A stretch of 64,000 nucleotides of DNA from Muribaculaceae bacterium Isolate-036 (Harlan) (GCA_003833075.1 RIAY01000007.1:1-64000); one strand, 5' to 3'. Positions 30,892-52,555 are shown, counted from the stretch's first letter. Numbers and translations are program-made. Notes: generated by a model from the letters alone, not told the origin.

Positions 30892-30964
30892 TGGTGCCAC
30901 CAGGAATCGAACCGGGGACACAAGGATTTTCAGTCCTTTGCTCTACCAACTGAGCTATGGCACC
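30892..30964 (-). tRNA. tRNA-Phe (anticodon GAA), no encoded CCA
   Basis: Reverse complement GGTGCCATAGCTCAGTTGGTAGAGCAAAGGACTGAAAATCCTTGTGTCCCCGGTTCGATTCCTGGTGGCACCA shows a cloverleaf with a GAA anticodon loop. Confidence 0.85.
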
Positions 30965-31626
30965 AACTTTAATGTTTGCAATATTGAGAACCTGCGCTAC
31001 TGCCTGTTTCCGTTTTGCGAGTGCAAAGTTAGTAATATTTTTTTATTCTGCAAAATTTTTCGCAATTTTTTATTAATTATTTTGTTGGATTCTGCTTCAG
31101 AGATTTACTGAACACAGCTGAGCTTTGCTGAATCACGTTGGCTAAGTCACATGTTACCAACAATATCCGCCATATGTTTTTTTTTAATAAACAAGTGCCG
31201 GGAATTAGCCTGTCTATCTCTTCAGCATATCCAAATCAATGTCCGTGCGGATGTCGAAGGGCTGCGGGTGCATTGCCATTATATCGTCAAGCAGCAGGAC
31301 TGTGCGGATGAAACATCGCCGCACTTCGCTTCTGTACACCTCCGCATACACGCCTTTGTTGGCAAGTTCATGCAGCTTGCTCCATTGCAAATAGAGATTC
31401 TCCTCGCATGCTCATAATCATGATATTTGTCAAATATTGTATACTTGAAATCAAATTTAGCTCGCTTCATTGACGCCTACTGCTTCCAGATAGGAAGAAC
31501 CGTTTCTCAGGGCGTTGTCAAGAAACAGTGCACTATCATTGTCAATGCTTTCGAGACACACCACATAGATATTGTTATCAGATACTGCAATCAGCTTTTG
31601 CGCATCAAGAGTGTTCCAGACCTTTA

Positions 31627-31810
31627 AGAAACTGTTTAAATTTAATTCGAAAAAATTTATATAATATATCTTGTGGGTTCCTTGAGGTCTTTTATGGTTG
31701 TTTTCACCAAGTCTCATCGGTCTCATAGCCCGCTATGCTCCCTCTTCAACTCGTGAAAACTCCTCATAAAATCCTCTCAATGAACCTCACAATTAAATTT
31801 AAACAGTTTC
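31627..31810. repeat. MITE-like repeat copy 1 (~184 bp) with perfect 20-bp terminal inverted repeats GAAACTGTTTAAATTTAATT
   Basis: About 90% identical to 40220-40402. Flanked by a TAA direct repeat. An internal CATAGCCCGCTATG hairpin is present. Confidence 0.6.
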
Positions 31811-32077
31811 TAAAGAAGCCATCAGCCATTTTTCAAATAGTTTCAGACGCCGGTTGTCATCCATATGACAGGAAATACACATATGGGCTTCGTCACTCTC
31901 TATGACTACCGCCTCCGACGCACATACATCCAGCAAAAGATCGCCGACAAACACCTTTGACGTCAGATTAAGATTACGCTTCTGCAGAATAGCGTTGAAA
32001 ACTATCCTGTTCACTGTCTCGCCATAGATACATCCCAGAGAGGGATCATCCGCATTAAAATGAAATGCCACTTTCAT
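31799..32077 (-). CDS. hypothetical protein fragment whose 3' end and stop codon lie inside the MITE terminal repeat (gene probably truncated by the MITE insertion)
   Basis: The ORF ends ...LMASLETV* within the GAAACTG TIR. A second ORF piece continues on the other side of the MITE (31457-31626). Confidence 0.3.
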   Translation of the reverse strand: MKVAFHFNADDPSLGCIYGETVNRIVFNAILQKRNLNLTSKVFVGDLLLDVCASEAVVIESDEAHMCISCHMDDNRRLKLFEKWLMASLETV

Positions 32078-32088
32078 ACCTTTGATTC

Positions 32089-33069
32089 TCAAGCGGTAGC
32101 CACAAGCCATGCCATATAACCGACATAGCAGGCGGCAAGCACACCACCCTCCCGTCGGGTAATGGTACGCTCTTTATAGACACATCCGAATATCCAGAAA
32201 AGCAAACTGCTTGCGGTGAGTATAAGCAGGTCTGCATTACCTACGGCTCCGAATGGCAACGGTCTTACCGTTGCCGCACATCCCAACACAAGGAATATAT
32301 TGAAGATGTTGCTCCCGATTACATTTCCCAGGGCTATGCCGGTCTTGCCTTTCAGGGCAGCCGTTATCGAGGTGGCAAGTTCCGGCAAAGATGTGCCCGC
32401 CGCCACAATCGTAAGACCGATCACGGCATCGCTCACCCCCAGTCCCGCGGCTATTCCGGAAGCACCGTCCACAAACTTGTCGCCGCCGTAAATCAGTCCC
32501 GCAAGACCACCTGCCACCCACAGCCATGCCTTCCACACCGGCATTTTTCTCTTCGACTCACCGCCTTTTGCCGCAGGGTCGCCGGATGCGGCATGCCTGG
32601 CAGAGGAGAAGGTGTGATGCATGAACACCATAAAGAAAAGCAGCAGGATTATACCGTCAACCCGCGTCAGCATATTGGTTTTCGAGCCGTCAAGGAGCGA
32701 TGTGTTGCCCATTGTCAGCAGAACGAGCGCCGAAAGTATCACAAGCGGAATATCCGTGGTCAGGATACTTTTCGAAATACGCATCGGTCGCACAAGGGAT
32801 GTTATCCCGATTATGGCACACACGTTGAAGATATTGCTCCCCACCACGTTTCCAATCGCCAGTCCGGCATTCCCGTCTACCGCCGACATTACGCTTATCA
32901 CGAGCTCAGGCGCCGACGTGCCGAACGCCACGATTGTGAGTCCGACAACAAGATCCGACATTCCCCACCGCTTGGCAAGCGACGACGCGCCATCGGTAAG
33001 CGCGTTTGCTCCCACAAGAATCAGCACAAGACCCAATATGAGAAATACTATATTCAGAATCATAAGCAA
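32089..33069 (-). CDS. CaCA-family Na+/Ca2+ (cation) antiporter (YrbG-like), 326 aa
   Basis: Duplicated GNVVGSNIFN / GNVIGSNIFN alpha-repeat motifs and a polytopic membrane profile. Confidence 0.7.
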   Translation of the reverse strand: MLMILNIVFLILGLVLILVGANALTDGASSLAKRWGMSDLVVGLTIVAFGTSAPELVISVMSAVDGNAGLAIGNVVGSNIFNVCAIIGITSLVRPMRISKSILTTDIPLVILSALVLLTMGNTSLLDGSKTNMLTRVDGIILLLFFMVFMHHTFSSARHAASGDPAAKGGESKRKMPVWKAWLWVAGGLAGLIYGGDKFVDGASGIAAGLGVSDAVIGLTIVAAGTSLPELATSITAALKGKTGIALGNVIGSNIFNIFLVLGCAATVRPLPFGAVGNADLLILTASSLLFWIFGCVYKERTITRREGGVLAACYVGYMAWLVATA

Positions 33070-33148
33070 TGAAATTTCAGTTCATACACCGCCACTTCGC
33101 GTCACATCCCTGTCAAACCCCGCAACGCCCCGTTTCGACTCGTCACCC

Positions 33149-34438
33149 CTATTCCTTAACGTAAAAATCTATCAGAGAGTTGAGGGCACGGCGGCACGCG
33201 GGGCAGAATCCATGCCATTCATTGTCACGCATACGGCACCTGTCCGCAGGGCTGTATACACCACGAAACGAATATCCTCCTCCCTCGAACACACCCACAG
33301 GATACCGTTGCCATTCACTGCGTTGTGTCGGCACCGGAGTCCCTTCCTCAAGCAAGGATTTCCATTTTGAATCAAAATCCACGAGTGTGGTGATATTCGG
33401 CTCCCAAGGCTCCACATCAAAAGGATAGCTGTCTTCCATCACGTCTCCTTCATAGAAATATTCATCGGCAAGACCTCCGAAACTATGTCCGAACTCATGT
33501 ACGACCACCGGCGCGAAATTATCATGTCCCGTAGTTGTCAGCGTATAGCTATTGTAAATTCCGCCGCCCCCATACACATCGCAATTGGCAAGAATTATGA
33601 TATGTTCATAAGGTACATGCGAAACCGATTCGTGAATATCAGACACATTTCCCGTGGTCAGATAACGATCCGAATAAAACGTGTCGAAATTTGATCCGAA
33701 CGATGTCTTCTTCCATTCCTTTCTTCTCGGCACACTCACTCCCTCATCTTCAGAAACCGTAGCTACAGCCACAAAATTAAAGCACGACTCCCGGTCCTTG
33801 AACGGCTCATGGCTCAGTATCGCCGTCACAGCCTTCTCTGCATCCCTGTAAAAAGCCTCCGTCTGCGATGCATTATACCCCTCGGCAAGAATCGCCACAT
33901 CAATCACATCTTCAGCATTGCCATTCTTCCTCAGATAGCGGTATTCGCTTTTACCCCTCGTGTCCGACTCCTTTACGAGGATATCATCCGGTGAATAGAG
34001 ATGCGTATTCGAAGCCACAGCATCATGTCGGGCGTCAAGCAATTCAATCGTAATCCTTGCCGTCCTGCGAGGCAAAGGTATCAAAAACGTATTCTGAAAA
34101 GATTTCGAAGTTACGGCAGCCTCCGGCGTAGACTGCCACTCCCGGAAAAGAGTGGAAAAACTGTGTCTGTATATGGTATCGCCACTAAGAGAATCAGCCA
34201 CAGTCACTATCCCGTTGCCGACATAAGGAATACTGTCAAGATTACACCTGCGTCCTGCCCATCCGCCGAACTTATGCATCCTGTCAAGAAACACGTGACT
34301 CTCCTTCGAATTACCTGCAGCTATATAATCAAGTCTGAGAGTTGAATCACAGAACACCTTTTCAAAACTCACATCCGCCATCCCCACCATGCGATAAAAC
34401 ACGACAAATGCAGACAACAGCAACAATTTTCTTATCAT
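33149..34438 (-). CDS. secreted M64-family (IgA-peptidase-like) zinc metallopeptidase. The start is trimmed to the ATG preceding the signal peptide.
   Basis: HEFGHSFGGLADEY zinc-binding motif. N-terminal MIRKLLLLSAFVVF signal peptide. Confidence 0.65.
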   Translation of the reverse strand: MIRKLLLLSAFVVFYRMVGMADVSFEKVFCDSTLRLDYIAAGNSKESHVFLDRMHKFGGWAGRRCNLDSIPYVGNGIVTVADSLSGDTIYRHSFSTLFREWQSTPEAAVTSKSFQNTFLIPLPRRTARITIELLDARHDAVASNTHLYSPDDILVKESDTRGKSEYRYLRKNGNAEDVIDVAILAEGYNASQTEAFYRDAEKAVTAILSHEPFKDRESCFNFVAVATVSEDEGVSVPRRKEWKKTSFGSNFDTFYSDRYLTTGNVSDIHESVSHVPYEHIIILANCDVYGGGGIYNSYTLTTTGHDNFAPVVVHEFGHSFGGLADEYFYEGDVMEDSYPFDVEPWEPNITTLVDFDSKWKSLLEEGTPVPTQRSEWQRYPVGVFEGGGYSFRGVYSPADRCRMRDNEWHGFCPACRRALNSLIDFYVKE

Positions 34439-34596
34439 ATTAACCGTCAATTGATTTTTACTGACCACTTCAAGGTTATTCCATAAGACGAACCGGAATA
34501 ACAAAAAGCATGGCTGCAAATGTAATAAATTCTTTTTTGGAAACATGAAGTTTCTAATTTTTTTGTTAGCTTTGGCTAAAACAATACAGAACAACC

Positions 34597-35034
34597 ATGC
34601 GCAAGTCAATTCTTATACTCGCTTTGCTTCTCGCGAATCCGTTTTACGTCATATGCCTTGCTGAACAAAACAGGCGCCACACACCGGCAGCGAAGAGCAA
34701 CGTGCCGAGAAGGATCATACACACCTGTATCCGACCATGATTATCTACCCTCCGACCGCCCCACCCTCGACGGCACTTTCTGGATTGAAGACGGCAAGCC
34801 ATGGGCGTGGCATACTCTAAAAGCGGTCGCCTCGAAGGTCCGTGGATACAAGAGAAAGAACCGCTTACACCCCCGAACCACGGTCATGGCATGATATTCA
34901 AAGATCTTGAAGGACGCAACATCCTTTCAGCACATAGCCATAGCGAAATCAACGGCAGATATGTACGCCGTCCCGTATTCTGGGAGATCGATCTTACAGG
35001 CGACAAACTCCGCATTATCCGCAAAATCGACTGA
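34597..35034 (+). pseudogene. frameshifted remnant of a secreted protein (signal peptide in one frame, the body split across two other frames)
   Basis: ATG plus signal peptide MRKSILILALLLANPF at ~34597. ORFs 34658..34894 and 34801..35034 continue the same apparent protein in shifted frames. Confidence 0.4.
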
Positions 35035-35203
35035 ACGAGACACACAAACCTCCACAAATTTCCACAATTCCGAATAATTACAAGCCAAAAATTCATATTT
35101 TTATAAAATAAATACCGATTATTACTGTCTTTTGATTATATTTGCGGCAATTTTCGAAAAAAACGGCGGCAAAACCGCCAAGGGCAAGAATAATCAATAA
35201 GTA

Positions 35204-35821
35204 ATGAACAACGACCAGGTATCAGTGATGTTCGCAGGAGAAGAGCATATAAAATATGCCGATCTCATATGCGACCTCATCTATGAGTCCGCGCTTCAGC
35301 GCGGCACCGGTATCGCCAGGCGTTCTCCCGACTACATCATCGACAAGATCCGAGGAGAGAAAGCCGTAGTGGCGATGTATGGCGACCGTCTCATCGGCTT
35401 CAGCTACATTGAAAGCTGGGGTCATGGTGACTACGTTGCCACATCGGGTCTTATCGTAGACCCGGAGTTCCGCAAGCTCGGTCTTGCGGCGCGTATCAAG
35501 AACAAGACATTCGAACTTGCCCGACGACGATTCCCCTTCGCAAAAATTTTCTCCATCACCACTTCGCTGCCTGTAATGAAACTCAACTCCCGCCTCGGCT
35601 ACAAGCCGGTGACATTCTCGGAGTTGACCACCGACGAAGAATTCTGGAGAGGATGCGAAGGGTGTGTGAATTACGATATCCTCTGCCGCAACAACCGCAA
35701 GATGTGTCTCTGCTACGGCATGCTTTACGACCCGAAGGCAACACTGCGGAAACAGTCATGGACTATCCCTTACGTAACTTGGATATCCAACAAGGTCAGA
35801 AAAATATTCCATCTGAAATAG
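35204..35821 (+). CDS. GNAT-family N-acetyltransferase, ArgA-like (N-acyl-glutamate synthase of the Bacteroidetes arg operon)
   Basis: GNAT motif region ...VDPEFRKLGLAARI... It is the first gene of the arg cluster. Confidence 0.6.
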   Translation: MNNDQVSVMFAGEEHIKYADLICDLIYESALQRGTGIARRSPDYIIDKIRGEKAVVAMYGDRLIGFSYIESWGHGDYVATSGLIVDPEFRKLGLAARIKNKTFELARRRFPFAKIFSITTSLPVMKLNSRLGYKPVTFSELTTDEEFWRGCEGCVNYDILCRNNRKMCLCYGMLYDPKATLRKQSWTIPYVTWISNKVRKIFHLK

Positions 35822-35947
35822 ACAGGTTTTTCCACACCGCATCCCCCTGATACTCATCCGCGCCGCACCCGGCGCTTAAAAGTTTTAATGCAGGAGCGTC
35901 CGCACCCGGCGGAACGCTTCATAACACATATACATACACATAAAGAA

Positions 35948-37156
35948 ATGAAAGAGTCCAAGAAAAAAGTCGTCCTTGCCTTCAGCGGAGGCCTCGACAC
36001 CTCATTTGCAGCAAAATATCTCTCCGAAGATCTCGGCTACGAGGTTCACACTGCAATAGCCAACACCGGCGGATTCACCCCCGGAGATCTCGAACGCATC
36101 GAGCAAAGGGCATACGCACTCGGTGCGGCGTCACACGCCTCTCTCGACATAACCGAAGACTATTACAACCGATCCATACGATATATGATAGCCGGCAACG
36201 TGCTCCGCAACGGCACATATCCCATCTCCGTCTCCTCGGAGCGCATATTTCAGGCGATAGCCATCATCGAATATGCCAAGAAGATCGGCGCGGACGCTGT
36301 GGCACACGGCTCAACCGGAGCCGGCAACGACCAAGTGCGTTTTGATCTCACATTCCAGATTCTCGCTCCGGAGATAGAGATCATCACTCCCACCCGCGAC
36401 ATGACACTCACACGCGAATATGAGATAGACTATCTCAAAAAACACGGAGTCGACGCCGACTATAAGAAAATGGAATATTCCATCAACAAAGGTCTGTGGG
36501 GAACGAGCATCGGCGGCAAAGAGACTCTTCACAGCGAGCAGACACTTCCCGACAGCGCCTATCCCAGTCAGGTCACGGCATCGGGAGAAGAGACACTCCG
36601 CATCACATTTCACAAAGGCGAAGTGACTGCCGTCAACGGCAAGACATATGAAAACCGCATCGACGCCATCCGTGCGGTCGAGGAGGCGGGAGCGAAATTC
36701 GGCATCGGACGCGACATGCATATCGGCGACACAATAATCGGCATAAAAGGACGAGTTGGCTTTGAAGCCGCCGCTCCCGTGCTCATCATAGCCGCCCACA
36801 AAATGCTGGAGAAACACACCCTCACCAAATGGCAGCAATACTGGAAAGACCAGATCGGCACCTGGTACGGCATGTTCCTTCACGAATCGCAATATCTCGA
36901 ACCGGTGATGCGCGACATGGAGAAATTCCTTGAAAGCAGTCAGGAGAACGTAAGCGGAACAGTTGAGATTACACTCCGTCCGCTCGGCTATACCCTCGTT
37001 GGCGTCGACTCCCCGTTCGACCTGATGAAAACCGATTTCGGAGAATACGGAGAAGTCAACAAGGCATGGAGTGCCGACGATGTGAAAGGATTCACAAAAA
37101 TTCTCGGCAACCAGATGAAAATATTCCACAACGTACAGAAAAGAAACGGGAAATGA
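35948..37156 (+). CDS. argG: argininosuccinate synthase
   Basis: AFSGGLDTS PP-loop motif. Start trimmed from the ORF-track start (35888) to ATG 35948. Confidence 0.85.
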   Translation: MKESKKKVVLAFSGGLDTSFAAKYLSEDLGYEVHTAIANTGGFTPGDLERIEQRAYALGAASHASLDITEDYYNRSIRYMIAGNVLRNGTYPISVSSERIFQAIAIIEYAKKIGADAVAHGSTGAGNDQVRFDLTFQILAPEIEIITPTRDMTLTREYEIDYLKKHGVDADYKKMEYSINKGLWGTSIGGKETLHSEQTLPDSAYPSQVTASGEETLRITFHKGEVTAVNGKTYENRIDAIRAVEEAGAKFGIGRDMHIGDTIIGIKGRVGFEAAAPVLIIAAHKMLEKHTLTKWQQYWKDQIGTWYGMFLHESQYLEPVMRDMEKFLESSQENVSGTVEITLRPLGYTLVGVDSPFDLMKTDFGEYGEVNKAWSADDVKGFTKILGNQMKIFHNVQKRNGK

Positions 37157-38115
37157 TAAAGGCAGGAATAATCGGAGGCGCGGGCTACACAGCGGGAGAA
37201 CTTGTCAGGCTTCTGCTCAACCATCCCGAAGTCAGTCTCGAATGGGTACACTCGTCGAGCAATGCCGGCAGACCGCTGTGCGAGGTGCACTCCGGCATTG
37301 CCGGAGACACTGACATGCTCTTTGCCGACACCCACCCGTTACAGGGCATAGACGTTCTCTTTCTCTGTTCCGGACACGGAGCGAGCGCTTCATTCTGGCA
37401 GCAGAACGAAATGCCCCGCGGTCTGCGGGTCATAGACCTTGCCCAGGACTTCCGCGATGAATCATGCGGTTACGTCTACGGACTTCCGGAAATCAACCGC
37501 CCACGCATCGCCGAGGCACGCAAGGTCGCCAACCCCGGATGCTTCGCCACAGCCATTCAGCTTGCTCTTCTCCCCCTCGCCGCATCAGGCAGTCTTGAAG
37601 GACGTGTGCATACTACGGGAATCACGGGAAGCACCGGCGCGGGAGTAAAGCCCTCCGTCACCACCCATTTCAGCTGGCGCGACAACAATCTGTCGGTATA
37701 CAAACCGTTCACACACCAGCACCTTACTGAAATCGGTGCCACCCTGCGCCATCTGCAGCCATCCTGGTCCGAAGGCATCAGCTTCATCCCCGTGCGCGGA
37801 GACTTTCCACGCGGCATATTCTGCGCCACAACCCTGCGCACTGCACTCGACACCGGCGAGCTGACCCGGATGTATTCGGATTTTTATTCGGAATCACCGT
37901 TCACACACGTATGCCGGACCGATGTTGACCTCAAGCAGGTTGTCAACACCAACAAATGTCTTCTCAGCGTCACCTCCCGCAACGGAGAAGCCCTTGTCAT
38001 CTCAGTCATCGACAACCTTCTAAAAGGAGCTTCCGGTCAGGCAGTCGAGAATATGAATCTGATGTTCGGACTCCCCGAAGACTGCGGGCTGAGACTCAAG
38101 GCATCTGCATTTTAG
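37153..38115 (+). CDS. argC: N-acetyl-gamma-glutamyl-phosphate reductase
   Basis: N-terminal GIIGGAGYTAGEL Rossmann motif and a catalytic Cys region (NPGCFAT). ATGA overlap with argG. Confidence 0.85.
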   Translation: MIKAGIIGGAGYTAGELVRLLLNHPEVSLEWVHSSSNAGRPLCEVHSGIAGDTDMLFADTHPLQGIDVLFLCSGHGASASFWQQNEMPRGLRVIDLAQDFRDESCGYVYGLPEINRPRIAEARKVANPGCFATAIQLALLPLAASGSLEGRVHTTGITGSTGAGVKPSVTTHFSWRDNNLSVYKPFTHQHLTEIGATLRHLQPSWSEGISFIPVRGDFPRGIFCATTLRTALDTGELTRMYSDFYSESPFTHVCRTDVDLKQVVNTNKCLLSVTSRNGEALVISVIDNLLKGASGQAVENMNLMFGLPEDCGLRLKASAF

Positions 38116-38142
38116 GTGTCGTTTAAATCTAAAAATACAGCA

Positions 38143-39270
38143 ATGAAACTATTTGATGTTTATTCATTATACGACATAGAACCCGTGCGCGGCAAGGGAA
38201 ACTATGTCTACACCGCCGACAGCACTCCCTATCTCGACTTTTACGGAGGTCACGCCGTGATCTCAATTGGTCACTCGCATCCGCGATATGTCGATGCCGT
38301 CAGCAGACAGGTGTCTCAGCTTGCGTTCTACAGCAATTCTGTTAAAAACACCCTGCAGCAACGCCTCGCCGACCTTCTCGGTGAGATTTCCGGTTATGAC
38401 GATTATCAGCTCTTTCTTGCCAATTCAGGCGCGGAAGCCAACGAGAACGCCATAAAACTCGCATCTTTCGCTACCGGACGCCGCAGGATCCTTGCCTTCG
38501 ACAAGGCGTTTCACGGACGCACATCTGCCGCAGTTGCCGCCACCGACAACCCCCGCATACAGGCACCAGTCAACAAGACCGACAACATCGTCTTCTCCCC
38601 CCTCAACGACATCGAGGCGGCAACCCGCCTGCTCGAATCACAGGAATTCGCAGCCGTCATTATCGAAGGCATTCAGGGAGTTGCAGGAATCCGCATGGTC
38701 GATGATGATTTCCTGCGCCGCCTGAGCGAAGTCGCCGCCGCAACCGGCACACTGCTGATAGCCGACGAAATCCAAAGCGGCTACGGACGCACAGGGAAAT
38801 TCTTCGCCCATCAGCACGCCGGGATACGCCCCGACATAATAACCTCCGCAAAAGGCATTGCAAACGGATTCCCGATGTCGGCGGTGCTCGTGTCGCCGGA
38901 GATCAGACCTGAAAAAGGGATGCTCGGCACAACCTTCGGAGGAAATCATCTCGCCTGTGCAGCCGCAATCGCGGTGCTTGAGATAATGCGCGATGAAAAC
39001 CTTGTGGAGAATGCAGCCCGAACCGGAGAAAGACTTATCGCGCGGCTTCGCGCCATTCCTGAGATAAAAGAGGTGCGCGGACGCGGACTGATGATAGGAA
39101 TGGAGATTGACGGAGATGCCTCTGAACTCCGCAGAAAACTCCTCTTCGGCAATCACGTATTTACCGGAGGCGCAGGCATACATACCGTCAGGCTGCTACC
39201 CCCGTTAACCATAACCGACGGTGAGGCTGACATCTTCATCGAAAGGTTGAAAAAAGCTATCAAAGAATGA
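38143..39270 (+). CDS. argD: acetyl/succinyl-ornithine aminotransferase (class III PLP aminotransferase)
   Basis: LIADEIQSGYGRTGKFFA PLP-lysine region. Confidence 0.8.
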   Translation: MKLFDVYSLYDIEPVRGKGNYVYTADSTPYLDFYGGHAVISIGHSHPRYVDAVSRQVSQLAFYSNSVKNTLQQRLADLLGEISGYDDYQLFLANSGAEANENAIKLASFATGRRRILAFDKAFHGRTSAAVAATDNPRIQAPVNKTDNIVFSPLNDIEAATRLLESQEFAAVIIEGIQGVAGIRMVDDDFLRRLSEVAAATGTLLIADEIQSGYGRTGKFFAHQHAGIRPDIITSAKGIANGFPMSAVLVSPEIRPEKGMLGTTFGGNHLACAAAIAVLEIMRDENLVENAARTGERLIARLRAIPEIKEVRGRGLMIGMEIDGDASELRRKLLFGNHVFTGGAGIHTVRLLPPLTITDGEADIFIERLKKAIKE

Positions 39271-40220
39271 GAAAGTTCACAGACGTAACAGACATCGGCT
39301 CTCTGCGCCAAGCCGTAGATGAGGCATTTGAGATAAAACGTGACCGTTTCGCCCATACCGATCTCGGCAAAAACCACACTTTGCTGATGATATTCTTCAA
39401 TTCGAGCCTGCGCACACGGCTCAGCACCCAGAAAGCGGCGATGAACCTCGGCATGAACGTGATTGTGCTCGATGTCAATCAGGGCGCATGGAAACTCGAG
39501 ACAGAACGCGGCGTGATAATGGACGGCGACAAAGCGGAACACCTCCTTGAGGCGATTCCGGTCATGGGAAGTTACTGCGACATAATCGGCGTGCGCGCCT
39601 TCGCCGGTCTCAAAGACCGCGACGAAGACTACGGGGAGCGCGTCATCTCCCAGTTTATCCACCATTCCGGGCGCCCCGTATTCAGTATGGAAGCGGCAAC
39701 CCGCCATCCCCTGCAAAGTTTCGCAGATCTTATCACCATCGAGGAGTTCAAGACAGTGGAGCGCCCTAAAGTGGTGCTTACATGGGCACCCCATCCCAAG
39801 GCTCTCCCGCAGGCGGTGCCCAACTCGTTCGCCGAATGGATGAACGCCGCCGACTACGATTTTGTCATCACTCATCCCCATGGATATGAGCTCGCACCGG
39901 AGTTTGTCGGCAATGCCACCGTGGAATATGACCAGCATCGCGCATTCGAGGGAGCGCACTTCATATACGCGAAAAACTGGAGTGCATACAATGCCCCCGA
40001 TTATGGAAAAGTTCTGAACACCGACCGCTCATGGATGGTGGATGAAGAGAAGATGCGCCTCACCGACAACGCCTTTTTCATGCACTGCCTTCCCGTCAGA
40101 CGCAACATGATTGTCTCCGATGCAGTCATAGAATCCGAACGCAGTCTGGTGATTCCCCAGGCAGCCAACCGCGAGATTTCGGCGCAGGTAGTTCTCAAAC
40201 GCATGCTTGAATCCCTTTAG
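39267..40220 (+). CDS. argF: N-acyl-ornithine carbamoyltransferase (ArgF'-type transcarbamylase)
   Basis: The transcarbamylase fold lacks the canonical STRTR signature and shows SLRTRLS instead, as in Bacteroides ArgF'. ATGA overlap with argD. Confidence 0.7.
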   Translation: MRKFTDVTDIGSLRQAVDEAFEIKRDRFAHTDLGKNHTLLMIFFNSSLRTRLSTQKAAMNLGMNVIVLDVNQGAWKLETERGVIMDGDKAEHLLEAIPVMGSYCDIIGVRAFAGLKDRDEDYGERVISQFIHHSGRPVFSMEAATRHPLQSFADLITIEEFKTVERPKVVLTWAPHPKALPQAVPNSFAEWMNAADYDFVITHPHGYELAPEFVGNATVEYDQHRAFEGAHFIYAKNWSAYNAPDYGKVLNTDRSWMVDEEKMRLTDNAFFMHCLPVRRNMIVSDAVIESERSLVIPQAANREISAQVVLKRMLESL

Positions 40221-40402
40221 AAACTGTTTAAATTTAATTCGATTTTTTTTATATAGTACATCTTGTGGCTTCCTTGAGGTCTTTTATGGCTGTTTTCACC
40301 GAGTCTCATCGGTCACATAGCCCGCTATGCTCCCTCTTCGACTCGTAAAAACACCTCATAAAATCCTCTCAATGAACCTCACAATTAAATTTAAACAGTT
40401 TC
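40220..40402. repeat. MITE-like repeat copy 2 (~183 bp), inserted between argF' and argB. Its first base completes the argF' TAG stop.
   Basis: Perfect 20-bp TIRs. A TTA direct repeat flanks it. Confidence 0.6.
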
Positions 40403-40426
40403 TTAGAATTAATATATTGACAGATA

Positions 40427-41203
40427 ATGCAGACTCTGAAAATTTTCAAGATAGGCGGCAACGTAGTTGACAACCCGCAGATTCTAAGCAAATTCCTTGC
40501 GGATTTCAACAGAGTGTCGGGAGACAAGATAATAGTGCACGGAGGCGGAAAGGAGGCGACACGTCTCGCCTCCGCTCTTGATGTGCCGGTCACAATGATC
40601 GAAGGGAGACGCGTCACAGACCGCCGGACACTCGACATCGTCACTATGGTTTACGCCGGACTCGTCAACAAACGTGTTGTGGCGGCACTTCAGGCTATCG
40701 GCTGCAACGCTATCGGGCTCTCTGGGTCCGACGGCGATGCGATCAGGGCTGTGAGACGCGCACCGGAACCTGTTGACTATGGATACGTCGGCGACATCAA
40801 CGCATCCTCAGTCAATGTCAGGCTGCTGACAGACTTGCTCGGCTGCGGCATGGTACCGGTGCTATGCGCCATAACCCACGATGGCGACGGCTTGCTACTG
40901 AACTGCAACGCCGACACGATAGCCTCGTCCGTCGCAGTAGCGCTTTCGCAGGTGCGGGAAACAGAACTGATCTACTGCTTCGAGCAGCCGGGAGTGCTTA
41001 CCGACATAAATGACAAAAGCAGCGTGATTCCACTGATCACCCCCGATGACTTTCCCGCTCTTAAAGAGAGCGGTGTGATTTCAGCCGGAATGATACCTAA
41101 AATCAAGAATGCCCTCGACGCGGTGCGCAAGGGAGTCAGATACGTCTCTGTCAAAAGCAGTGATGACATTCTCGGCTGCACCGGAACAACAGTGCGCCTA
41201 TGA
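40427..41203 (+). CDS. argB: acetylglutamate kinase
   Basis: Amino-acid kinase family motifs (KIGG...VHGGG). Confidence 0.8.
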   Translation: MQTLKIFKIGGNVVDNPQILSKFLADFNRVSGDKIIVHGGGKEATRLASALDVPVTMIEGRRVTDRRTLDIVTMVYAGLVNKRVVAALQAIGCNAIGLSGSDGDAIRAVRRAPEPVDYGYVGDINASSVNVRLLTDLLGCGMVPVLCAITHDGDGLLLNCNADTIASSVAVALSQVRETELIYCFEQPGVLTDINDKSSVIPLITPDDFPALKESGVISAGMIPKIKNALDAVRKGVRYVSVKSSDDILGCTGTTVRL

Positions 41204-42288
41204 CACGTCAGGCAACAGACCTCCTCAGGACACTCATCGCCACACCCTCCGTCTCTCGCGATGAAAACGCCGCAGCTGATGTCGTGGAGGCTTTTCTCCG
41301 CGACCATGGTGTCCGTACCCGGCGTTATGCCGACAACATCGTCGCTCTGCCGGAACGTTTCGTTCCGGGGTTGCCGGTACTGATGCTCAACAGCCATATC
41401 GACACAGTCCGTCCCGCACCCTCCTATTCGTTCGACCCCTTTGCCCCGTTCGAAGAGAACGGACGTCTGTACGGACTCGGCAGCAATGACGCCGGGGCAA
41501 GCGTGGTGTCGCTCATAGCGGCGTTTCTGCAGCTTCGCGGCGAGGACCTCCCCCTGAATCTTCTGCTTGCCGTCTCGGCGGAAGAAGAGGTCGGGGGTGA
41601 AAACGGGATGCGCCTGCTTCTACCTTCTCTTGCAGCCGACGGCATCGTGCCCGACATGGCAATCGTCGGAGAACCCACGGGGATGCAGCCCGCCATCGCC
41701 GAACGCGGACTTGTCGTTCTCGACTGCGTGACACGCGGAATAACCGGACATGCCGCCCGCCCGGAGGGAGTGAACGCCATATACAGGGCGATCGATGACA
41801 TTTCCCTGTTGCGCGGCTTCCGGTTCGGCAACGAATCGGAGACTCTCGGTCCTGTCAGGATCTCCGTAACCATGATAGAGGCAGGCAGGCAACACAATGT
41901 AGTGCCCGACGAATGCCGCTGGGTTGCGGACATACGCACCACCGACGCCTACTCGAATGAAGAGACCGTCAGGATACTGCAGGAGGCTGTAAGCTGTCAT
42001 TCCGTTCTGACTCCCCGTTCCACACGCATCCGCGCCTCGGTGATCGACCCGGGACATCCGCTTGTAAGGGCAGCCTCGGAAATGGGACTGACTCCGTTCA
42101 TATCCCCAACCACCTCCGACATGTCGCTGATGCACGGCATACCATCGCTCAAGATCGGTCCGGGGGATTCCGCCCGCTCCCACTCCGCCGACGAATTCAT
42201 TCTCATCGACGAGATAGAGCAGGCTATATCGTTATATCCGAAACTAATAAGAAAATGTTCAAATGAAACTTTGGGACAAGGGTTTTGA
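41200..42288 (+). CDS. argE: M20-family deacylase (acetylornithine deacetylase or succinyl-ornithine desuccinylase)
   Basis: M20 motifs NSHIDTV and GSNDAGA. ATGA overlap with argB. Confidence 0.7.
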   Translation: MTRQATDLLRTLIATPSVSRDENAAADVVEAFLRDHGVRTRRYADNIVALPERFVPGLPVLMLNSHIDTVRPAPSYSFDPFAPFEENGRLYGLGSNDAGASVVSLIAAFLQLRGEDLPLNLLLAVSAEEEVGGENGMRLLLPSLAADGIVPDMAIVGEPTGMQPAIAERGLVVLDCVTRGITGHAARPEGVNAIYRAIDDISLLRGFRFGNESETLGPVRISVTMIEAGRQHNVVPDECRWVADIRTTDAYSNEETVRILQEAVSCHSVLTPRSTRIRASVIDPGHPLVRAASEMGLTPFISPTTSDMSLMHGIPSLKIGPGDSARSHSADEFILIDEIEQAISLYPKLIRKCSNETLGQGF

Positions 42289-43552
42289 ACCCGACAAAAT
42301 AATAGAGAAGTTCACCGTAGGCAATGATCGCGAACTCGACATGAGACTCGCCCTTTACGATGTCGAGGGCTCCATGGCACACATCACCATGCTTGAATCG
42401 ATCGGACTTCTGACACAGGAGGAGCTGCAAACCCTCCTCTCCGCTCTTGAGGAAATAAAAGAGACCATACGCAACGGCAGTTTCAGCATCGAGGAGGGTG
42501 TGGAGGATGTCCACTCCCAGGTCGAGTTCATGCTTACGGCAAAGCTCGGTGACCTCGGAAAAAAAATCCACTCAGGTCGCTCCCGCAACGACCAGGTGCT
42601 TCTTGACCTGAAACTCTTTATGCGCGACGAGCTGAAGAAAATAGCCCAAGTCACAGGCAGCCTGTGCCACTCTCTGCTTGATCTTGCCGAAAGACACAAG
42701 GATGTCCTGATGCCGGGATACACACATCTGCAGATAGCCATGCCCTCTTCTTTCGGTCTGTGGTTCGGAGCTTACGCCGAATCATTTTCCGACGACCTCG
42801 AGCTGCTTTGGTCGGCATACCGCATAGCCAACCGCAATCCGCTCGGGTCGGCAGCCGGATATGGCTCTTCGTTCCCCCTTGACCGCGAGATGACCACCCG
42901 CCTCCTCCACTTCGAATCGATGCATTACAACGTCGTGGCGGCGCAGATGAGCCGGGGAAAGACCGAACGCGCCGCAGCCATGGCTGTTGCCGCAATAGCC
43001 TCTACCCTTTCACACCTTGCCATGGACGTTTGCATGTGGATGTGTCAGAATTTCGGATTTGTCTCCTTTCCCGATGAGCTCACAACCGGTTCCTCGATAA
43101 TGCCTCACAAGAAAAATCCGGACGTGTTCGAGATAATGCGGGGCAAATGCAACAGGCTCCAGTCTCTGCCCAACGAGATCGCACTTCTCACCGCCAACCT
43201 CCCGTTAGGATACAACCGCGACCTCCAGCTACTGAAAGACATAACATTCCCGGCTACTTCGGAAATCATCTCCTGCCTCGAAATGGCGGAATTTATGCTC
43301 GGACACATCAGAGTGAACACCAGGATTCTCGATGATCCGAAATACGACTACCTATTCACGGTAGAGGATGTGAACCGGCTCGCTCTTGAAGGCATGCCCT
43401 TCCGCGATGCCTATAAAGAAATAGGTATGCAGGTGCAGAAAGGTGAATACAAACCCGATCAGCATATCCGCCACACCCATGCCGGCAGCATAGGCAACCT
43501 CTGCAACGACCGCATCGCAGCTCGCATCAACGAAATCCTCTCACGCTTCTAA
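42263..43552 (+). CDS. argH: argininosuccinate lyase
   Basis: Fumarate-lyase signature GSSIMPHKKNPD. Confidence 0.85.
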   Translation: MKLWDKGFEPDKIIEKFTVGNDRELDMRLALYDVEGSMAHITMLESIGLLTQEELQTLLSALEEIKETIRNGSFSIEEGVEDVHSQVEFMLTAKLGDLGKKIHSGRSRNDQVLLDLKLFMRDELKKIAQVTGSLCHSLLDLAERHKDVLMPGYTHLQIAMPSSFGLWFGAYAESFSDDLELLWSAYRIANRNPLGSAAGYGSSFPLDREMTTRLLHFESMHYNVVAAQMSRGKTERAAAMAVAAIASTLSHLAMDVCMWMCQNFGFVSFPDELTTGSSIMPHKKNPDVFEIMRGKCNRLQSLPNEIALLTANLPLGYNRDLQLLKDITFPATSEIISCLEMAEFMLGHIRVNTRILDDPKYDYLFTVEDVNRLALEGMPFRDAYKEIGMQVQKGEYKPDQHIRHTHAGSIGNLCNDRIAARINEILSRF

Positions 43553-43601
43553 AAGAATCTACGATATCATTATTTTAACTTTCGTAAATAAGTCAAGACG
43601 A

Positions 43602-43694
43602 GTTCACTGTTTAAATTTAATTATGAGGTTCATTGAGTGGATTTTATGAGGCGTTTTTACGAGTTGAGGAAGGAGCACAGCTCGCTGTGCTCCT
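43602..43694. repeat. partial, inverted MITE-like copy 3 (one TIR plus ~70 bp) followed by a GGAGCACAGC...GCTGTGCTCC hairpin
   Basis: TTCACTGTTTAAATTTAATT...ATGAGGTTCATTGAG matches the reverse complement of the right half of copies 1 and 2. Confidence 0.45.
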
Positions 43695-43860
43695 GACCAT
43701 ACAATATAAGGCGGTGTGTCAAAATTGATAAAATTTGACACACCGCCTTGATTTTAGCCGGATGGCGAGGATGCTGTCAGAATAGTCCGAATCATTCAGC
43801 CAACGACCCAGACGGGCTATTATGACACATCCTCTTCACTTTTTAGTATTATGCGCCAGT

Positions 43861-46800
43861 CTATCTGTCGTTAACTACCTTTACCACACGTGTCGTGCCA
43901 TCGGAAAGTTCCTCCAGCACAATATAGATCCTGCCATCAGCCGTTTCAGGCACAGGCACCTCAATTCCTTCCGTATTGAAGAATCTGCGGCTGACAACGT
44001 TTTCCCCATCATTTTCAATAGAACCGATTCCTGATGTATGGTTCACTGCCAGTTCATATGTCTTTGACAGGTCACCTGCCGTAGCAGTCACGAGAATCTT
44101 GCCTATGACAGTTGCTGCGAAGCAAGCCTTGTTTCCATCAAACACGAGATCCTTGCAATCGCTTGACCATTTCACGGTTCCTACGCCACCTACATTGAAA
44201 TCCTTTGTCACACTTGATTGCGTGTCACCATCGGCAAGGATCAAACCTGCAGCATGGAACAATGCGACTTCATTTCCTACGGCATCTTTCACTACCGGAT
44301 ATGTATAGTCATCCGTCGAAACGAAACCTTCACCGAGATCAAGAGCGGCAAGTTCCTTTGCAGTTATCTTGCGCGCCTCAAACGCCTCGTCATTGACACT
44401 ATTGTTGATGTCAAGATAGAAGGTATTCTCCATCTTGTTGTCTGCCGTCCATTGTTTTCCGTTTGTAAAAGACACACCCACTATTGAGCCGCAAGAGTCA
44501 GCAGGAGCTTCGATCTTGCCGGAATTATAACAATTGACAAACTGAGTCTTCCCCTTTTCGGGAGTTGCCACAAGACCTGCCACACGGGCAAGCCCCTTCA
44601 CGGAACCCGCGTTGTAGCAGTTTCTGAATGTTGCGCCCGAATGCGCAGCCAGACCGCCTATCTCAAATGAAGGCTCATCTTTTGTCACAGTAGACTGCAC
44701 ATTACTGAGCGATGAAACGCTACCTGTGTTCCAGCACCCCTCGACAAGACCGTCTATAGGCGATCCCCATGCGATCAACCCGCCTGCACGATCTGTCTTT
44801 CCTGTAATGTTACCCGTATTGTAACAGTTTATCATCTGTGGACCATTACCTGCAAATTGCGAAGTAATGCCCGCTACCATACGGTTACCCTCGATATCAC
44901 CGACATTCCGGCAATTCCTGAATATCACCTTTCCCGATGCGGAGCCGGTGATGCCACCGCCCTGGTTGCCATCGGCAATGATCGTTCCTTCGTTGACACA
45001 ATCGATAAACGATGCCTCGTCAGGAGTAGAAGCAGATCCCGGAGTACCGATTACCTGTCCCGCTATTCCGCCGGCATAGACATTGAAATTGGATATGATC
45101 GTACCTGTATTGGTGCAACGAGTGAACGAAGACCCGGGCGTATAGGATGTTACAAATCCAGCCGTTGGATAACCCGTGCCGAGAGATTTGGTCGATTCTG
45201 CAGAAATGTCACCATTGTTAAGGCAATCAGTCATTATATATTGAGCGTTGGCTGATGCCGAAGATGTTGCCGGAGTGCCGGCAATGTACCCTGCAACCTT
45301 ACCTGCCGCGCTGACCGGAGTGCTGTTGGTACAAGATACGAAGGAATAAACGCCATTGCCCTTAGTGCCAAGAGCGTTTCCGATGAATCCGGCTACAGTG
45401 TGAGCCCACTCGGGTGTGGCAACGATTATTTCTCCATTGCTTTTGCAATTCTCAAAAATTGCGGCACCTGAACTTGAAACAAAACCACCTATAGTGACTG
45501 CCGTTGCTTTGGAATATGATGCCGTCTGCTCTATCTTGCCCTTGAACTCGCAATCCTTATATGTCACTCCGGCTGCACCTGTGGCAACAAGACCACCGAT
45601 CGATGCCATATTGCTCTTTATCGAGCCGCCGAACACCACGCCATTAAGCACTGCGCCTGCATAAGCATTGCCTACGACTCCGGATACATTCGCCTTATTT
45701 GTTGTCACCGAAACATTCGAAACAACGTTCTCCAGTGTTCCGTAAAGTTTATCAACAACAGGACAGGCATATGTATGCGTAGCGTTTAACGTTCCCTCAA
45801 TCTTAAGGTTCTTGATTGTCGCATCGGCACCGACGGTTCCGAACATTCCACTCGCCGAATTGGCAATCGAGCTTAAGTCAACAACTTTTATCGTGTGGTT
45901 AGCACCATCGAGCGTTCCGCTCATCACGGTCACTCCATCGCCACCTATGCGTACGGGAGTAATGCCTGAAAAGTCAAGGTCCGCAGTTATCCTTACAGTC
46001 TGACCGATCAGGTCCCTGCCTGTCTTGTTCATGTGTGTTGCAAGAGCGTTCCAGTCCCCCGTATTATTGAGAAGATATGGATTATCGGCTGTACCCTCTC
46101 CGTTGAGAGGCATCGCGGGAAGCACACGGATAAAAATCGGACGACGCACATTTGCCGCGTTAACGGCTATTAGCGTATCCGCCACTATCTCCGTTACGTT
46201 CTGCGGGACTATCAATACCCCATTCTCAATCTTGAACGCGCTTCCGTCAGAGAGTGACCATGCTGCGTTTCCATCAAGTTCCACATTGCTTGCGAGTTCG
46301 CTGAAGATCTCTCCCGACACAGCTTTGGCGATGACTTTACGTGCAGCATCCACCTTAGTCTCGTCTGCGAATGTTTTCAGCGCGGGATATATACCGGCAC
46401 GGTAGTCCCATACATCTGAGACAAGACCTTCAAGGGCTTCACCGGAAGTCAGTGCCGTTGTTTCAACACCATTCATATTCACAACGTCAGCGTTAGCTCC
46501 TGCCTTAATACCTATAGTCTGTGCATCGAAATAAACATTCTCAACATTCTTCGTACCGGCAAGACCGAGAACAGCACCTACTGTCGCCTTGTTGCCGCAA
46601 TATACATTGCCGAGACTCAGGCAGCCGATTATGTTATCATTTGCCGATCCTGCTGCCGATGTGCCCTCCATAGAGCCACTTATGCCGCCGGCATTATTAT
46701 TCTGGGCGTAAACGGTGCCGTAATTCACACAATTTTTTATTGCCGAACCGTTGCTGCCTCCTGCAATACCGCCTACCCGCTGCAACTGCTTGATATAGTT

Positions 46801-49800
46801 TGTGCAGATAGCCGACGCCGAGATATCGCCTGTATTCACGCAGTTCTCTATCATACCATTGGAAGAGCCCGCTATGCCTCCGACGTTGGCATATCCGGAA
46901 CGTATGTTTCCCGCATTATAGCAGTCAGAGATCCTGCCTCCCTTATTCACCATTCCTGCGATGCCTCCTACCCAGCATGAATAGCCGGTCACGTCGGCAT
47001 AGTTACGGCAGTTTTCCACCGTTCCGTCAAGCGATGCCACAAAAGCGGCGCAGGTGCCGTACATTTCAAACTTGGATCCGGCTCCGATGTTAAGATTGCG
47101 CACTACCCCATTCTCGCCCAAACGTCCGAAAAGTCCGCCCATTGTGCGGCATTCCGAGGTGTTGAGCGTTCCGACTTCTGTCTCCGTCGGTGTCTTTGAC
47201 CACACAACCCTGTCAGGTATAAGTATGTTGTCGATCGTATAGCCTCTGCCGTCAAACACTCCCTGGAATTTTACCGATGCCGAACCCGCTGAAGCGTCTG
47301 CGGATATTCCGTCGAATGCCGGGTCATGACCGAGATCTATGTCGTTTGTCATGGCAAAGTATACACCGTCGAATGTCTGACGCTTTGCCGTAGTAGCCTC
47401 GGATAGCAGGATGAGATCGTTCTTCGTCTTTATGAGCAGCGGCGAATCAGCCGTGCCTTCCCCCTCGAATGGTATGGGGGCAATGTTCAGGAAATGATAT
47501 GTCTGCACATCTCCGTTGACCACATAAAGAGTATCCGTGCCAAATTCCGTTCCGATTTCAAGGGTCTTGTTTTCAACAATTCTTGAATAGTAACCTTCTG
47601 TATAGAGATTGCGCCCTTTTGAAATACGGAAAAGCGTGTTGCCAAGGGCAGTAAGCGGCGTGTTGTTTGAGATTTTACGGAAACTGTCGCCTGAAGCTGT
47701 CAACACGGCAGATGCGCTGAATTTTGCCGCCTCCGTCTCTGCCAGAGCCTTGATGCGCGGATATGCTCCTTCCGTGAAAGTCCAGACATCGGCAGGGAAA
47801 CCGGCGGGACCGCCCGCTGCAGTCAGTTCGGCAGTGGTGGAGCCGAAGCGCGTTGACTGGAAATCGGTTACTTTCCTGTCGTAATATATATTGGTCAGTT
47901 CAGGATTTGTTCCGTCCAATATCTTGCCTATCACTTCATTGCAATTATTACGGTCATACTGGTATGTCTCCACCTCTACGGAAGCCGACGTATAACAGTT
48001 TATAACCTTAGGAGTTATTTTTGACGATCCGAGCTGTATCTGACCTATTATACCTCCTCCCATCCTTGTGAAGCAGTGAACCACTCCGGAGGAGTAGCAG
48101 TTCTCGACAACTCCGCTTGACAGAATGCCGACAACTCCGCCGACTTGCGACTGTGAGCTGTAACCGCGCACAACGCCAGACGAGAATGAGTTGCGCAAGG
48201 CAACGTTCTGAAGCGTGCCCACGACACCTCCTATAATCTGTCCGTTATCGTTCTGCAGATTCGCATATGTAATAAGTCCGCTGAAATACAGGTTTGACGC
48301 GTCCGCATCAAGAATATTGCCCGCGACACCTCCGGCAGGGCTGTTATCTCCCATGATATGAACCGTTGTCCCTACGGCAGAACAATTGTTCATGCCGCCA
48401 TGAACCTCGCCAACGACACCACCCAGGAAACCGGTTCCGGCAACGGTGCCTCCGGTGACGCGGCATTCGGACATGCTGCCCGACACTATACCGGCAACGC
48501 CTCCCGTACCTGTGCGTGCTCCGCTGACAGACGGCTTATTCACTGTTATGTTCTCGAGCGAACCGATACACCATGCGGCAACCGGTCCCGCGCTGAGATA
48601 TTGACTGGAAACTACAGGTTGTTCGATCACTATATTCTTTATCACCGTCGTAGTGTCACAAATGCCGAACAGACCGGCATACGCATCTGCACCCGAATTT
48701 ACGTTAAGCCCACGGATAGTATGCCCCCTGCCATCCAATGAGCCTGCAAACCGCTGATTCCAGGTTTTGCCAATGGCATCGAATGCATAACCCTTCATGT
48801 CAATATCGGAGGTAAGGGCAAAGTGCTTGCCTATATATGTACGTGTATATTTCTGTGTTCCGTACACGCCCACATAGTTATCATCGCTGTTCACCTTGTC
48901 TGAAAGAAGAATGAGATGATCAAGAGATGAAATCAGGTAAGGGCTTTCAACGGTTCCGTCTCCCTCAAATCCGTCAACACTGAGTTCGGGATATTTCCAT
49001 GGAGTATCGGCAGAAAGCCTTGCCTCCGTCAGCACACCCGCATATGACTTAGCCTCCGCGCACAGCAGCGACCAGTCTGTCCAGGAGAGAGTGCTGTTGT
49101 CGGCTGCCGGAGCTGCCGCAGTTGCAATGATAGGCGAATATTTAGTAAGATTGCCCTTATCGTTAAATTCCAGACACTTGATCATCAACCACGAACCGGA
49201 TCCGTTTATAAATGCCGTCTGGTTGTTGATCTCTGCCGTGCGGTCTCGATTCAGTTTAATCTCGATATCCAGACCACGGTTGAAGATATTCGTAACCGCC
49301 AGCATGTTTGGCGATGTCTGGTTTATGATGACATAATATCCGGCTTGCCTGTTGTCTGAAGTTTTATATGTCATTGTGCCATTGGGCATTCCCATTGCCA
49401 GATTGAAGTATGCGCCTACGAATTTATCCTTGTTGGCACCCTCCTTCTGAACATATATTCCCCACCATGCCTCAGTGAAATCTATGGAACCGCCATCAGT
49501 CACCTTGCCGGTGATCTGCCTGTCGTAAGCGGGAGTTCCATCCGTCTGGGTCACTGCAATGTCAAGACGACCGAGCGATTCATCCGTCATCACATACTGG
49601 CTGGGGATCGAAACCGTCGACGTAACCTTGTCGTAATGGGCACGCACATTGCATCCATTCCAGAAGTTATTGATGGTAATCGAGTCACCGTCTGCATCGG
49701 GGGTCAGCTGCATTGTTGAGCCGCCATCGTAACTTGCGCTCACAAGTGTCTGATAAGTGCCCACATAATAACCACCGATATCGCCTGCCTGTCGCGATTC

Positions 49801-50061: not shown

Positions 50062-50215
50062 AATTGCTGCTGACTGAGGAACTTTGATTACTATAAACAC
50101 CCGTGAAAGACTACATCCGTGTCCTCAGTTTACCGGACTGTAGTGCTTGTCAGGGGATATTGACCGATCCGTAAACCAGTCATTAAAAACTTTTAGACGT
50201 TGTTTATCCGGATTC

Positions 50216-52417: not shown

Positions 52418-52487
52418 GTCATTATTCGGTATAAAATAAGTAGGGTGTTCAGCCATATATTCTTACAAAACTGTAACCTAAACTATT

Positions 52488-52524
52488 AAAGGCTTCGATC
52501 GGGATTCCGACCGAAACCTTTAGT
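52488..52524 (-). terminator. hairpin terminator downstream of the 2084-aa gene. A near-identical copy lies downstream of the paralog.
   Basis: AAAGGCTTCGATCGG...CCGACCGAAACCTTT. Confidence 0.4.
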
Positions 52525-52555
52525 TTTGATTCTAATTGAGGTTGGTCGGGAAGAA

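Follow-up and report, generated by a model that had tools for sequence, protein, structure and literature searches.

A 64,000-nucleotide stretch of DNA from Muribaculaceae bacterium Isolate-036 (Harlan) (GCA_003833075.1 RIAY01000007.1:1-64000), which was analysed whole and is termed the window here, carries three copies of a short repeat, two full-length and one partial. These repeats very probably represent one subfamily of a non-autonomous, IS5-type superfamily of miniature inverted-repeat transposable elements (MITEs) of Bacteroidota, which is defined by the terminal inverted repeat (TIR) GAAACTGTTTAAATTTAATT. The elements are non-coding. An IS5-family DDE transposase, supplied by an insertion sequence (IS) of ~900 bp with the same ends, would bind both ends, excise or copy the element and insert it at a TWA trinucleotide (W = A or T), which is thereby duplicated. 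Mobilisation by such a transposase is what we infer from the shared ends and the duplications. A first-pass annotation of this DNA had already proposed a non-autonomous MITE with TWA-type duplication and an IS5- or Harbinger-like transposase encoded elsewhere, and that proposal is supported by the copies, by an IS with shared ends and by an empty site.

Sequence properties of the three copies

The two full-length copies are each 183 bp long and are identical at 169 of 183 positions without gaps (92.3%, close to the ~90% first estimated); an A5/T5 run accounts for five of the 14 differences. Both start with the 20-mer GAAACTGTTTAAATTTAATT and end with its exact reverse complement. The four perfect matches to this sequence in the window are these two inverted pairs, and a fifth site with three mismatches is present at 43603-43622. 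Five sites at up to three mismatches compare with 0.04 expected per window, and none of 100 shuffled sequences reaches five. Direct 3-bp repeats flank both copies, TAA at copy 1 and TTA at copy 2, and the perfect TIRs and direct repeats of the first-pass annotation can be read on both. Its coordinates are right for copy 2, but its start of copy 1 at 31627 is one base early, this being the last base of the TAA. The features are as follows.

31625-31627, no strand: target site duplication TAA, left of copy 1 (read from the sequence)
31628-31810, minus (strand of the stronger hairpin): MITE copy 1, full, 183 bp (TIRs, identity, nhmmer)
31724-31737, no strand: apex stem-loop CATAGC-CC-GCTATG of copy 1 (sequence and folding)
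31811-31813, no strand: target site duplication TAA, right of copy 1 (read from the sequence)
40217-40219, no strand: target site duplication TTA, left of copy 2; its TA belongs to the argF' TAG stop codon
40220-40402, minus (strand of the stronger hairpin): MITE copy 2, full, 183 bp, in the argF'-argB interval (TIRs, identity, nhmmer)
40316-40329, no strand: apex stem-loop CATAGC-CC-GCTATG of copy 2 (sequence and folding)
40403-40405, no strand: target site duplication TTA, right of copy 2; the next base, 40406, is G
43603 to ~43697, plus: copy 3, half element with one arm and the apex (TIR search, complementarity, nhmmer)
43672-43693, plus: apex hairpin of copy 3, 10 bp, GGAGCACAGC-TC-GCTGTGCTCC (sequence)

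An nhmmer profile detects these three copies in the window (E=4e-34 for copy 1 and E=3e-11 for copy 3) and no copy beyond them. The third, partial inverted copy that had been noted is real: over the 84 nt of 43606-43689, 88% of positions can pair with either full copy. The element is short (183 bp), and the open reading frames (ORFs) that touch it belong to no Pfam family. Rfam 15, searched at gathering score over the whole window, yields a transfer RNA (tRNA) gene at 30892-30964 as its sole match and none to the element; a permissive Rfam scan of copy 1 gives chance-level small nucleolar RNA matches only (E>=0.6).

Distribution in Bacteroidota

The exact 20-mer was scanned in one genome per prokaryotic species and is present in at least 109 stretches. 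Among the matches listed, to which the counts in this section refer, almost all are from Bacteroidota. Hosts include Muribaculaceae, Paludibacteraceae, Prolixibacteraceae, Ferruginibacter and Bacteroidales of rumen, deer and horse, and one Microscillaceae metagenome-assembled genome (MAG) has dozens of copies. The few matches outside the phylum mostly lack a TWA flank and look like chance matches or mis-binned contigs. A scan of viral contigs for the TIR gave no matches.

The flanks of these TIRs define the target. TTA or TAA abuts 101 of 114 ends, and TNA abuts 109 of 114. There are 49 TIR pairs, spaced 67-365 bp apart and mostly 160-185 bp, and 40 of the 49 have identical 3-bp flanks, 39 of them TWA; for pairs with TWA on both sides, chance would make only about half identical. 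A 2-bp TA duplication of the IS630/mariner type is rejected, as TTA and TAA both occur, with two-sided identity in 39 of 40 cases, which fits a duplication of 3 bp rather than 2 bp. A palindrome of the repetitive extragenic palindromic/bacterial interspersed mosaic element (REP/BIME) type, or one derived from IS200/IS605, which go with a tyrosine (RAYT) or HUH transposase, does not fit the TIRs, the 3-bp duplications and the co-occurrence of a DDE transposase.

The element interiors fall into several unrelated-looking subfamilies. The subfamily of the window is found as 183-184 bp copies of 91% identity at unrelated loci in the genome of Muribaculaceae Isolate-104. Two MAGs that bear the label Porphyromonadaceae also have many copies of it, located at the ends of contigs. 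Mini-derivatives of 40, 67, 77 and 90 bp are present in L032, L091, L105 and L019. Copies elsewhere are many and at unrelated sites. The first-pass annotation termed the repeat novel, which is true at the level of the family, but the repeat is one subfamily of a superfamily that the TIR delimits across Bacteroidota. The TIR also marks a common unannotated repeat that breaks Bacteroidota assemblies, as many TIR matches lie ~30-50 nt from contig ends.

Two contigs with the TIR are placed in bins of unrelated phyla, L096 in a MAG labelled Agathobacter and L028 in a MAG labelled Saccharibacteria. One of the two bears an IS5 transposase and the other a Muribaculaceae-type MITE; mis-binning is more likely than transfer.

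Insertion sequences with the same ends

At nine loci among the matches listed, of Paludibacteraceae type, the N-terminus of an IS5 transposase begins ~95 nt inside the TIR. Sequence L088 contains a complete 924-bp IS (139-1062), bounded by GAAATTGTTTAAATTTAATT and ...AAACAGCTTC, in which both TIRs are present and the duplication is TAA. The 263-amino-acid transposase matches NCBIfam NF033580 (transpos_IS5_3, IS5 family) at 2e-65 and 220.9 bits, the cut-off being 110, and displays the Pfam domains DUF4096 (PF13340) and DDE_Tnp_1 (PF01609). An intact 899-bp relative is found on the Bacteroides fragilis plasmid CP103159.1, with 17 of 20 TIR positions alike and a TTA duplication, and its transposase is 66.7% identical to that of L088. 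Autonomous elements with such ends, both of the IS5 family, exist. More than 2,000 homologues of 257-259 amino acids are found at E<=1e-60, many of them on ~1-kb contigs. Two further transposase-bearing contigs, L133 and L134, were dropped as reference IS, as neither has an intact left end.

The NF033580 type of IS presumably corresponds to the IS1031-like group of ISfinder, with lengths of 850-950 bp, a 3-bp TNA duplication and ends that start with GAG. The partner IS described here compare with this type as elements of 899-924 bp with one ~258-amino-acid DDE transposase, a DUF4096 N-terminus, GAA/GAAG ends and TWA duplication. The element of the window differs from them in having no transposase.

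Internal-deletion derivatives of the IS exist (L046, 667 bp; L051, 719 bp), and the short element too has been shortened in situ (to 26, 40, 67, 77 and 90 bp); both would fit an origin of the copies as inert relics of separate full-length IS that decayed in place, with the short form never amplified. However, the 183-bp copies are 91-92% identical throughout an interior that has no similarity to the IS. Because independent decay cannot yield one and the same 143-bp interior at several loci, it must have been the short form that was copied, and separate decay is a very improbable origin.

Copy 2 and the history of the argF'-argB site

Copy 2 is located inside an arginine operon, the order of which by Pfam is GNAT, argG, argC, argD, argF', argB, M20 deacylase and argH. 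The flanking genes are as follows.

39267-40220, plus: argF' (acetyl/succinyl-ornithine carbamoyltransferase), upstream of copy 2 (Pfam OTCace_N and OTCace; names of homologues)
40427-41203, plus: argB, downstream of copy 2 (Pfam AA_kinase)

The argF' stop codon TAG is at 40218-40220, and its G is the first TIR base of copy 2. That this G forms part of the stop codon had been noticed before and is correct, but the stop was not created by the TIR. Removal of copy 2 together with one TTA gives ...CTT TAG AAT..., so that the empty site already reads TAG; the TAG predates the insertion because the base that follows the right TTA is also G (40406). Insertion on the argF' stop codon left protein and stop unchanged.

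Related genomes display this site in three states. It is filled in the window and in L117, where copy 2 is kept in full. At least seven conspecific contigs carry instead a 26-bp palindrome, GAAACTGTTTAAATTTAAACAGTTTC, between the two TTA in place of copy 2; these contigs encode an identical ArgF' and are 98-99.5% identical to the window in nucleotide sequence. The 26-bp form is a perfect palindrome in L110-L116 and L121, with TTA flanks unchanged, and it equals the element minus 157 bp, with end points inside TTAAATTTAA, a 10-nt palindrome present in both TIRs. The 157 bp were probably lost by slippage between the TTAAATTTAA repeats of the two ends. A relative of 94% identity has the 26-bp scar as well. 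In a relative of 88% identity (L122) the site is empty, with a 16-nt spacer, and in relatives of 87% identity argF' and argB overlap by 4 nt. A metagenome scan with a 25-mer of the argF' junction returned three contigs, none of them empty. Copy 2 is decaying in the population, its inner 157 bp being gone in most strains. The site provides a three-state population marker (empty, full and 26-bp scar) and a natural experiment on whether a 183-nt hairpin in a biosynthetic operon affects downstream expression.

The 26-bp examples all come from metagenome assemblies, and polymerases can skip strong hairpins, so the short form might be an artefact of short-read libraries or of assembly across the hairpin. 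This is quite improbable: the form is found in at least seven contigs from various projects and pipelines as well as in the 94% relative, and it requires novel junction k-mers to be present in the reads. In contig L115, which has the 26-bp form between argF' and argB, copy 1 is assembled completely despite a structure just as strong, and the SPAdes contig L117 retains full copy 2.

A hairpin within the element (CATAGCCCGCTATG) had been suggested as a transcription attenuator. More generally, copy 2 could be non-mobile and serve the arginine operon as a conserved cis-regulatory sequence or a structured RNA, of the attenuator, terminator or riboswitch kind, given its position inside the operon, the presence of copy 3 at the operon's 3' end and a fold far stronger than that of shuffled sequence. 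A terminator scan also detects one weak 6-bp site in copy 2 (40267-40281), and none in copy 1. On the other hand, the same element occurs with target duplications at unrelated loci and in unrelated genomes, the inner 157 bp are missing from strains whose ArgF' is identical, and the 88% relative is without the whole element; the empty and deleted sites contradict a regulatory reading. The arg mRNA (plus strand) bears the weaker-folding strand, and the element has no Rfam match. As CATAGCCCGCTATG is followed by CTCCCTCTTCG, with no U-tract 3' of it, and is the tip of a foldback as long as the element, the attenuator idea is unsupported. A regulatory, non-mobile origin is extremely improbable, and mobility remains the preferred explanation.

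Contig L117 (ERZ778497 NODE-1915) departs from the arg operon past the right TIR and TTAGAAT and enters sequence not present in the window. Either the MITE was the site of a rearrangement, or the contig, of low coverage (4x), is a chimera assembled through the repeat. Where the window retains only an 88-nt remnant (34711-34798), L117 has an open, coding-like stretch of 655 nt; in the strain of the window, a gene that lay between the one for the M64 peptidase and the first of the arg operon appears to have been deleted or to have decayed.

Copy 1 and a minus-strand open reading frame

Copy 1 inserted either within a small unannotated ORF or at its end. Two reading frames meet at copy 1.

31457-31627, minus: open frame LKVWNTLDAQ...VNEAS*, which continues the 31799-32110 ORF once copy 1 is removed
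31799-32110, minus: 103-amino-acid ORF of no Pfam family, ending ...MASL|ETV*, with ETV and the stop encoded by the TIR

The last codons and the stop of this ORF are TIR-encoded, as was first thought. Excision of copy 1 with one TAA joins the two in frame into an ORF of ~144 amino acids, and copy 1 may have split a gene of which 31799-32110 would be the 5' part. The truncation proposed in the first-pass annotation fits the restored frame, but an intact homologue of the restored ORF was sought in databases and every homologue found is split by the element. In a relative of 87% identity (L118), the ORF stops six codons before the copy 1 site, and 329 nt are missing around the site. Because of these split homologues and of the early stop and gap in L118, disruption of a gene by copy 1 is a plausible reading of the frames and goes no further. 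Copy 1 is present in the conspecific contig L115 at 99.5% identity.

Database proteins P0004-P0006 start within the element and run on into the 31457-31627 frame, and the element creates spurious small ORFs with element-encoded starts or ends, as in P0001 and P0004-P0006.

L120 (ERZ807551 NODE_5253) has a rearranged copy 1 region, in which parts of the ORF are inverted and duplicated and which adjoins an IS110-family transposase gene. The tRNA gene mentioned above (Rfam 68.4 bits) is on the minus strand, like the interrupted ORF, and lies ~660 nt downstream of copy 1.

Several results weigh against a mobile, IS5-mobilised element. The similarity between the MITE and the IS is confined to ~20 nt, so that only the TIR and the type of duplication connect the two. 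The L088 transposase has two in-frame stops, and tblastn with the transposase N-terminus detects none of this clade within the 64-kb window. Copies 1 and 2 differ by 7.7%, so that recent activity would be conjectural. At the argF'-argB site only full and internally deleted forms were found within the species, with no truly empty site, and the copy 1 site in the nearest diverged relative, L118, is a 329-nt gap with no clean empty site.

Copy 3 downstream of argH

Copy 3 lies 50 nt past the argH stop. Its outer TIR is degenerate (TTCACTG...), and its apex differs from that of copies 1 and 2 by a compensatory T-A to C-G change. It is fixed as a half element in six further strains, and is an older insertion downstream of argH of which one half has since been lost.

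The apex loop of copy 3 (43682-43683) is TC in some strains and its complement GA in two of these six, L129 and L130, a loop flip of the palindrome type. Just past copy 3, argH and a convergent ORF of 2079 amino acids are separated by a hairpin with the canonical look of a terminator (43711-43756; GGCGGTGTGTCAAAATTGATAAAATTTGACACACCGCC, then TTGATTTT); the terminator scan missed it, probably owing to its long loop and stem. A 60-nt indel polymorphism relative to L127, L128, L131 and L132 is found at ~43786, in the interval from the arg terminator region to where the 2079-amino-acid ORF ends.

Element-long foldback and strand asymmetry

The whole element forms a long, almost complete foldback with CATAGCCCGCTATG at its tip. 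The full copies fold at -66.7 and -71.8 kcal/mol on one strand versus -55.1 and -50.7 kcal/mol on the other; for copy 2 the values are -71.8 kcal/mol for the minus strand (z = -11.1) and -50.7 kcal/mol for the plus strand (z = -7.2). A gap of 10-40 kcal/mol between strands is present in most of 48 elements, and the strong strands are homologous and in the same orientation across subfamilies.

RNAalifold on a cross-subfamily MAFFT alignment yields a poor consensus of 20 pairs, mostly in the TIR. As the arms are out of register between subfamilies in this alignment, each subfamily consensus was analysed separately. In the strong strands of five subfamily consensuses, G·U pairs number 31 whereas 1x1 mismatches of A·C are absent, and the mismatches that do occur are purine-purine. 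The apex stem varies by subfamily yet always pairs (CATAGC/GCTATG, CACAGC/GCTGTG, CAATGG/CCATTG and 8-bp stems that differ from these in sequence) and starts 73-79 nt from one element end.

Since one strand folds so much better, a single-stranded form of the element, RNA or single-stranded DNA, is probably under selection. It is possible, although on balance unlikely, that the strand-specific hairpin has a selected function in addition to the mobility of the element, for instance as an RNase III-processed RNA, through an effect on transposase expression or as single-stranded DNA in mobilisation. The G·U asymmetry on one strand of five diverged subfamilies in the same homologous orientation, the energy gap, the purine-purine mismatches and the covariation of the apex stem at a fixed ~74 nt from one end speak for such a function. 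The strong strand was picked after folding, which inflates the asymmetry, with a corrected estimate still of ~1e-8; the subfamilies are partly non-independent, and that of the window has only two G·U pairs. Orientation relative to flanking genes (crude ORF calls) shows no bias, with eight weak versus four strong strands in co-directional contexts.

A little more doubtful still is the wider proposal that an old MITE superfamily of Bacteroidota has kept a one-strand hairpin by compensatory change, so that an IS5-type MITE would be selected as a single-stranded molecule. If true, this would imply either a structured RNA that serves the element or its host, or a single-stranded DNA hairpin needed for mobilisation; to our knowledge, neither has been described for IS5-type elements. 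The strand-biased foldback, if selected, would offer a clue to the recognition or tolerance of IS5-type MITEs.

Relation to known elements

The kind of element is well known, namely a type II bacterial MITE of an IS5-family IS, with examples in Bacteroidota, and the literature searched yielded no description of the family itself. No paper was found with this TIR, nor with MITEs of Muribaculaceae or of Bacteroidales beyond Porphyromonas gingivalis; literature searches on MITEs of Bacteroidales, Muribaculaceae and Bacteroides returned only P. gingivalis and Cardinium elements, the TIRs of which are different. In P. gingivalis, MITEs 239, 464/PgRS, 700 and BrickBuilt have TIRs that match those of ISPg1/3/4/9 (PMC4596501). 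The element described here resembles them in being short, non-coding, multi-copy, mostly intergenic and assembly-breaking, and in sharing only its TIR with an IS5-family IS of the same phylum. It differs in the TIR, GAAACTGTTTAAATTTAATT as against GAGACTGTTGCA in ISPg4 and MITE464 (9 of 12 alike), and in its clean 3-bp TWA duplication, as against the irregular duplications of BrickBuilt. It also has no internal tandem repeats, forms a single long foldback and is spread over many families of the phylum, whereas the P. gingivalis MITEs are those of one species.

Tourist-like MITEs and PIF/Harbinger elements are likewise short, AT-rich foldbacks with a 3-bp TWA (TTA/TAA) duplication, and their transposase is a distant relative of that of IS5; these elements are eukaryotic and need a second, Myb-like protein. 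The likeness is one of mechanism only and not of membership. Correia elements (Neisseria) and ERIC/IRU (Enterobacteria) are MITE-like foldbacks co-transcribed with their neighbours; depending on orientation they give a different RNA hairpin, which can change how the mRNA is processed. Correia elements duplicate TA. Their sequences are unrelated to the element of the window.

Other features of the window

The 2079-amino-acid ORF that converges on argH (43861-50100, minus strand) belongs to no Pfam family at E<=0.001. Two stretches of ~1.8 kb, 52462-54289 and 60337-62137, lie 7.9 kb apart, are 68-86% identical and are probably paralogous genes. A 31-nt motif is present eight times, mostly within these two stretches.

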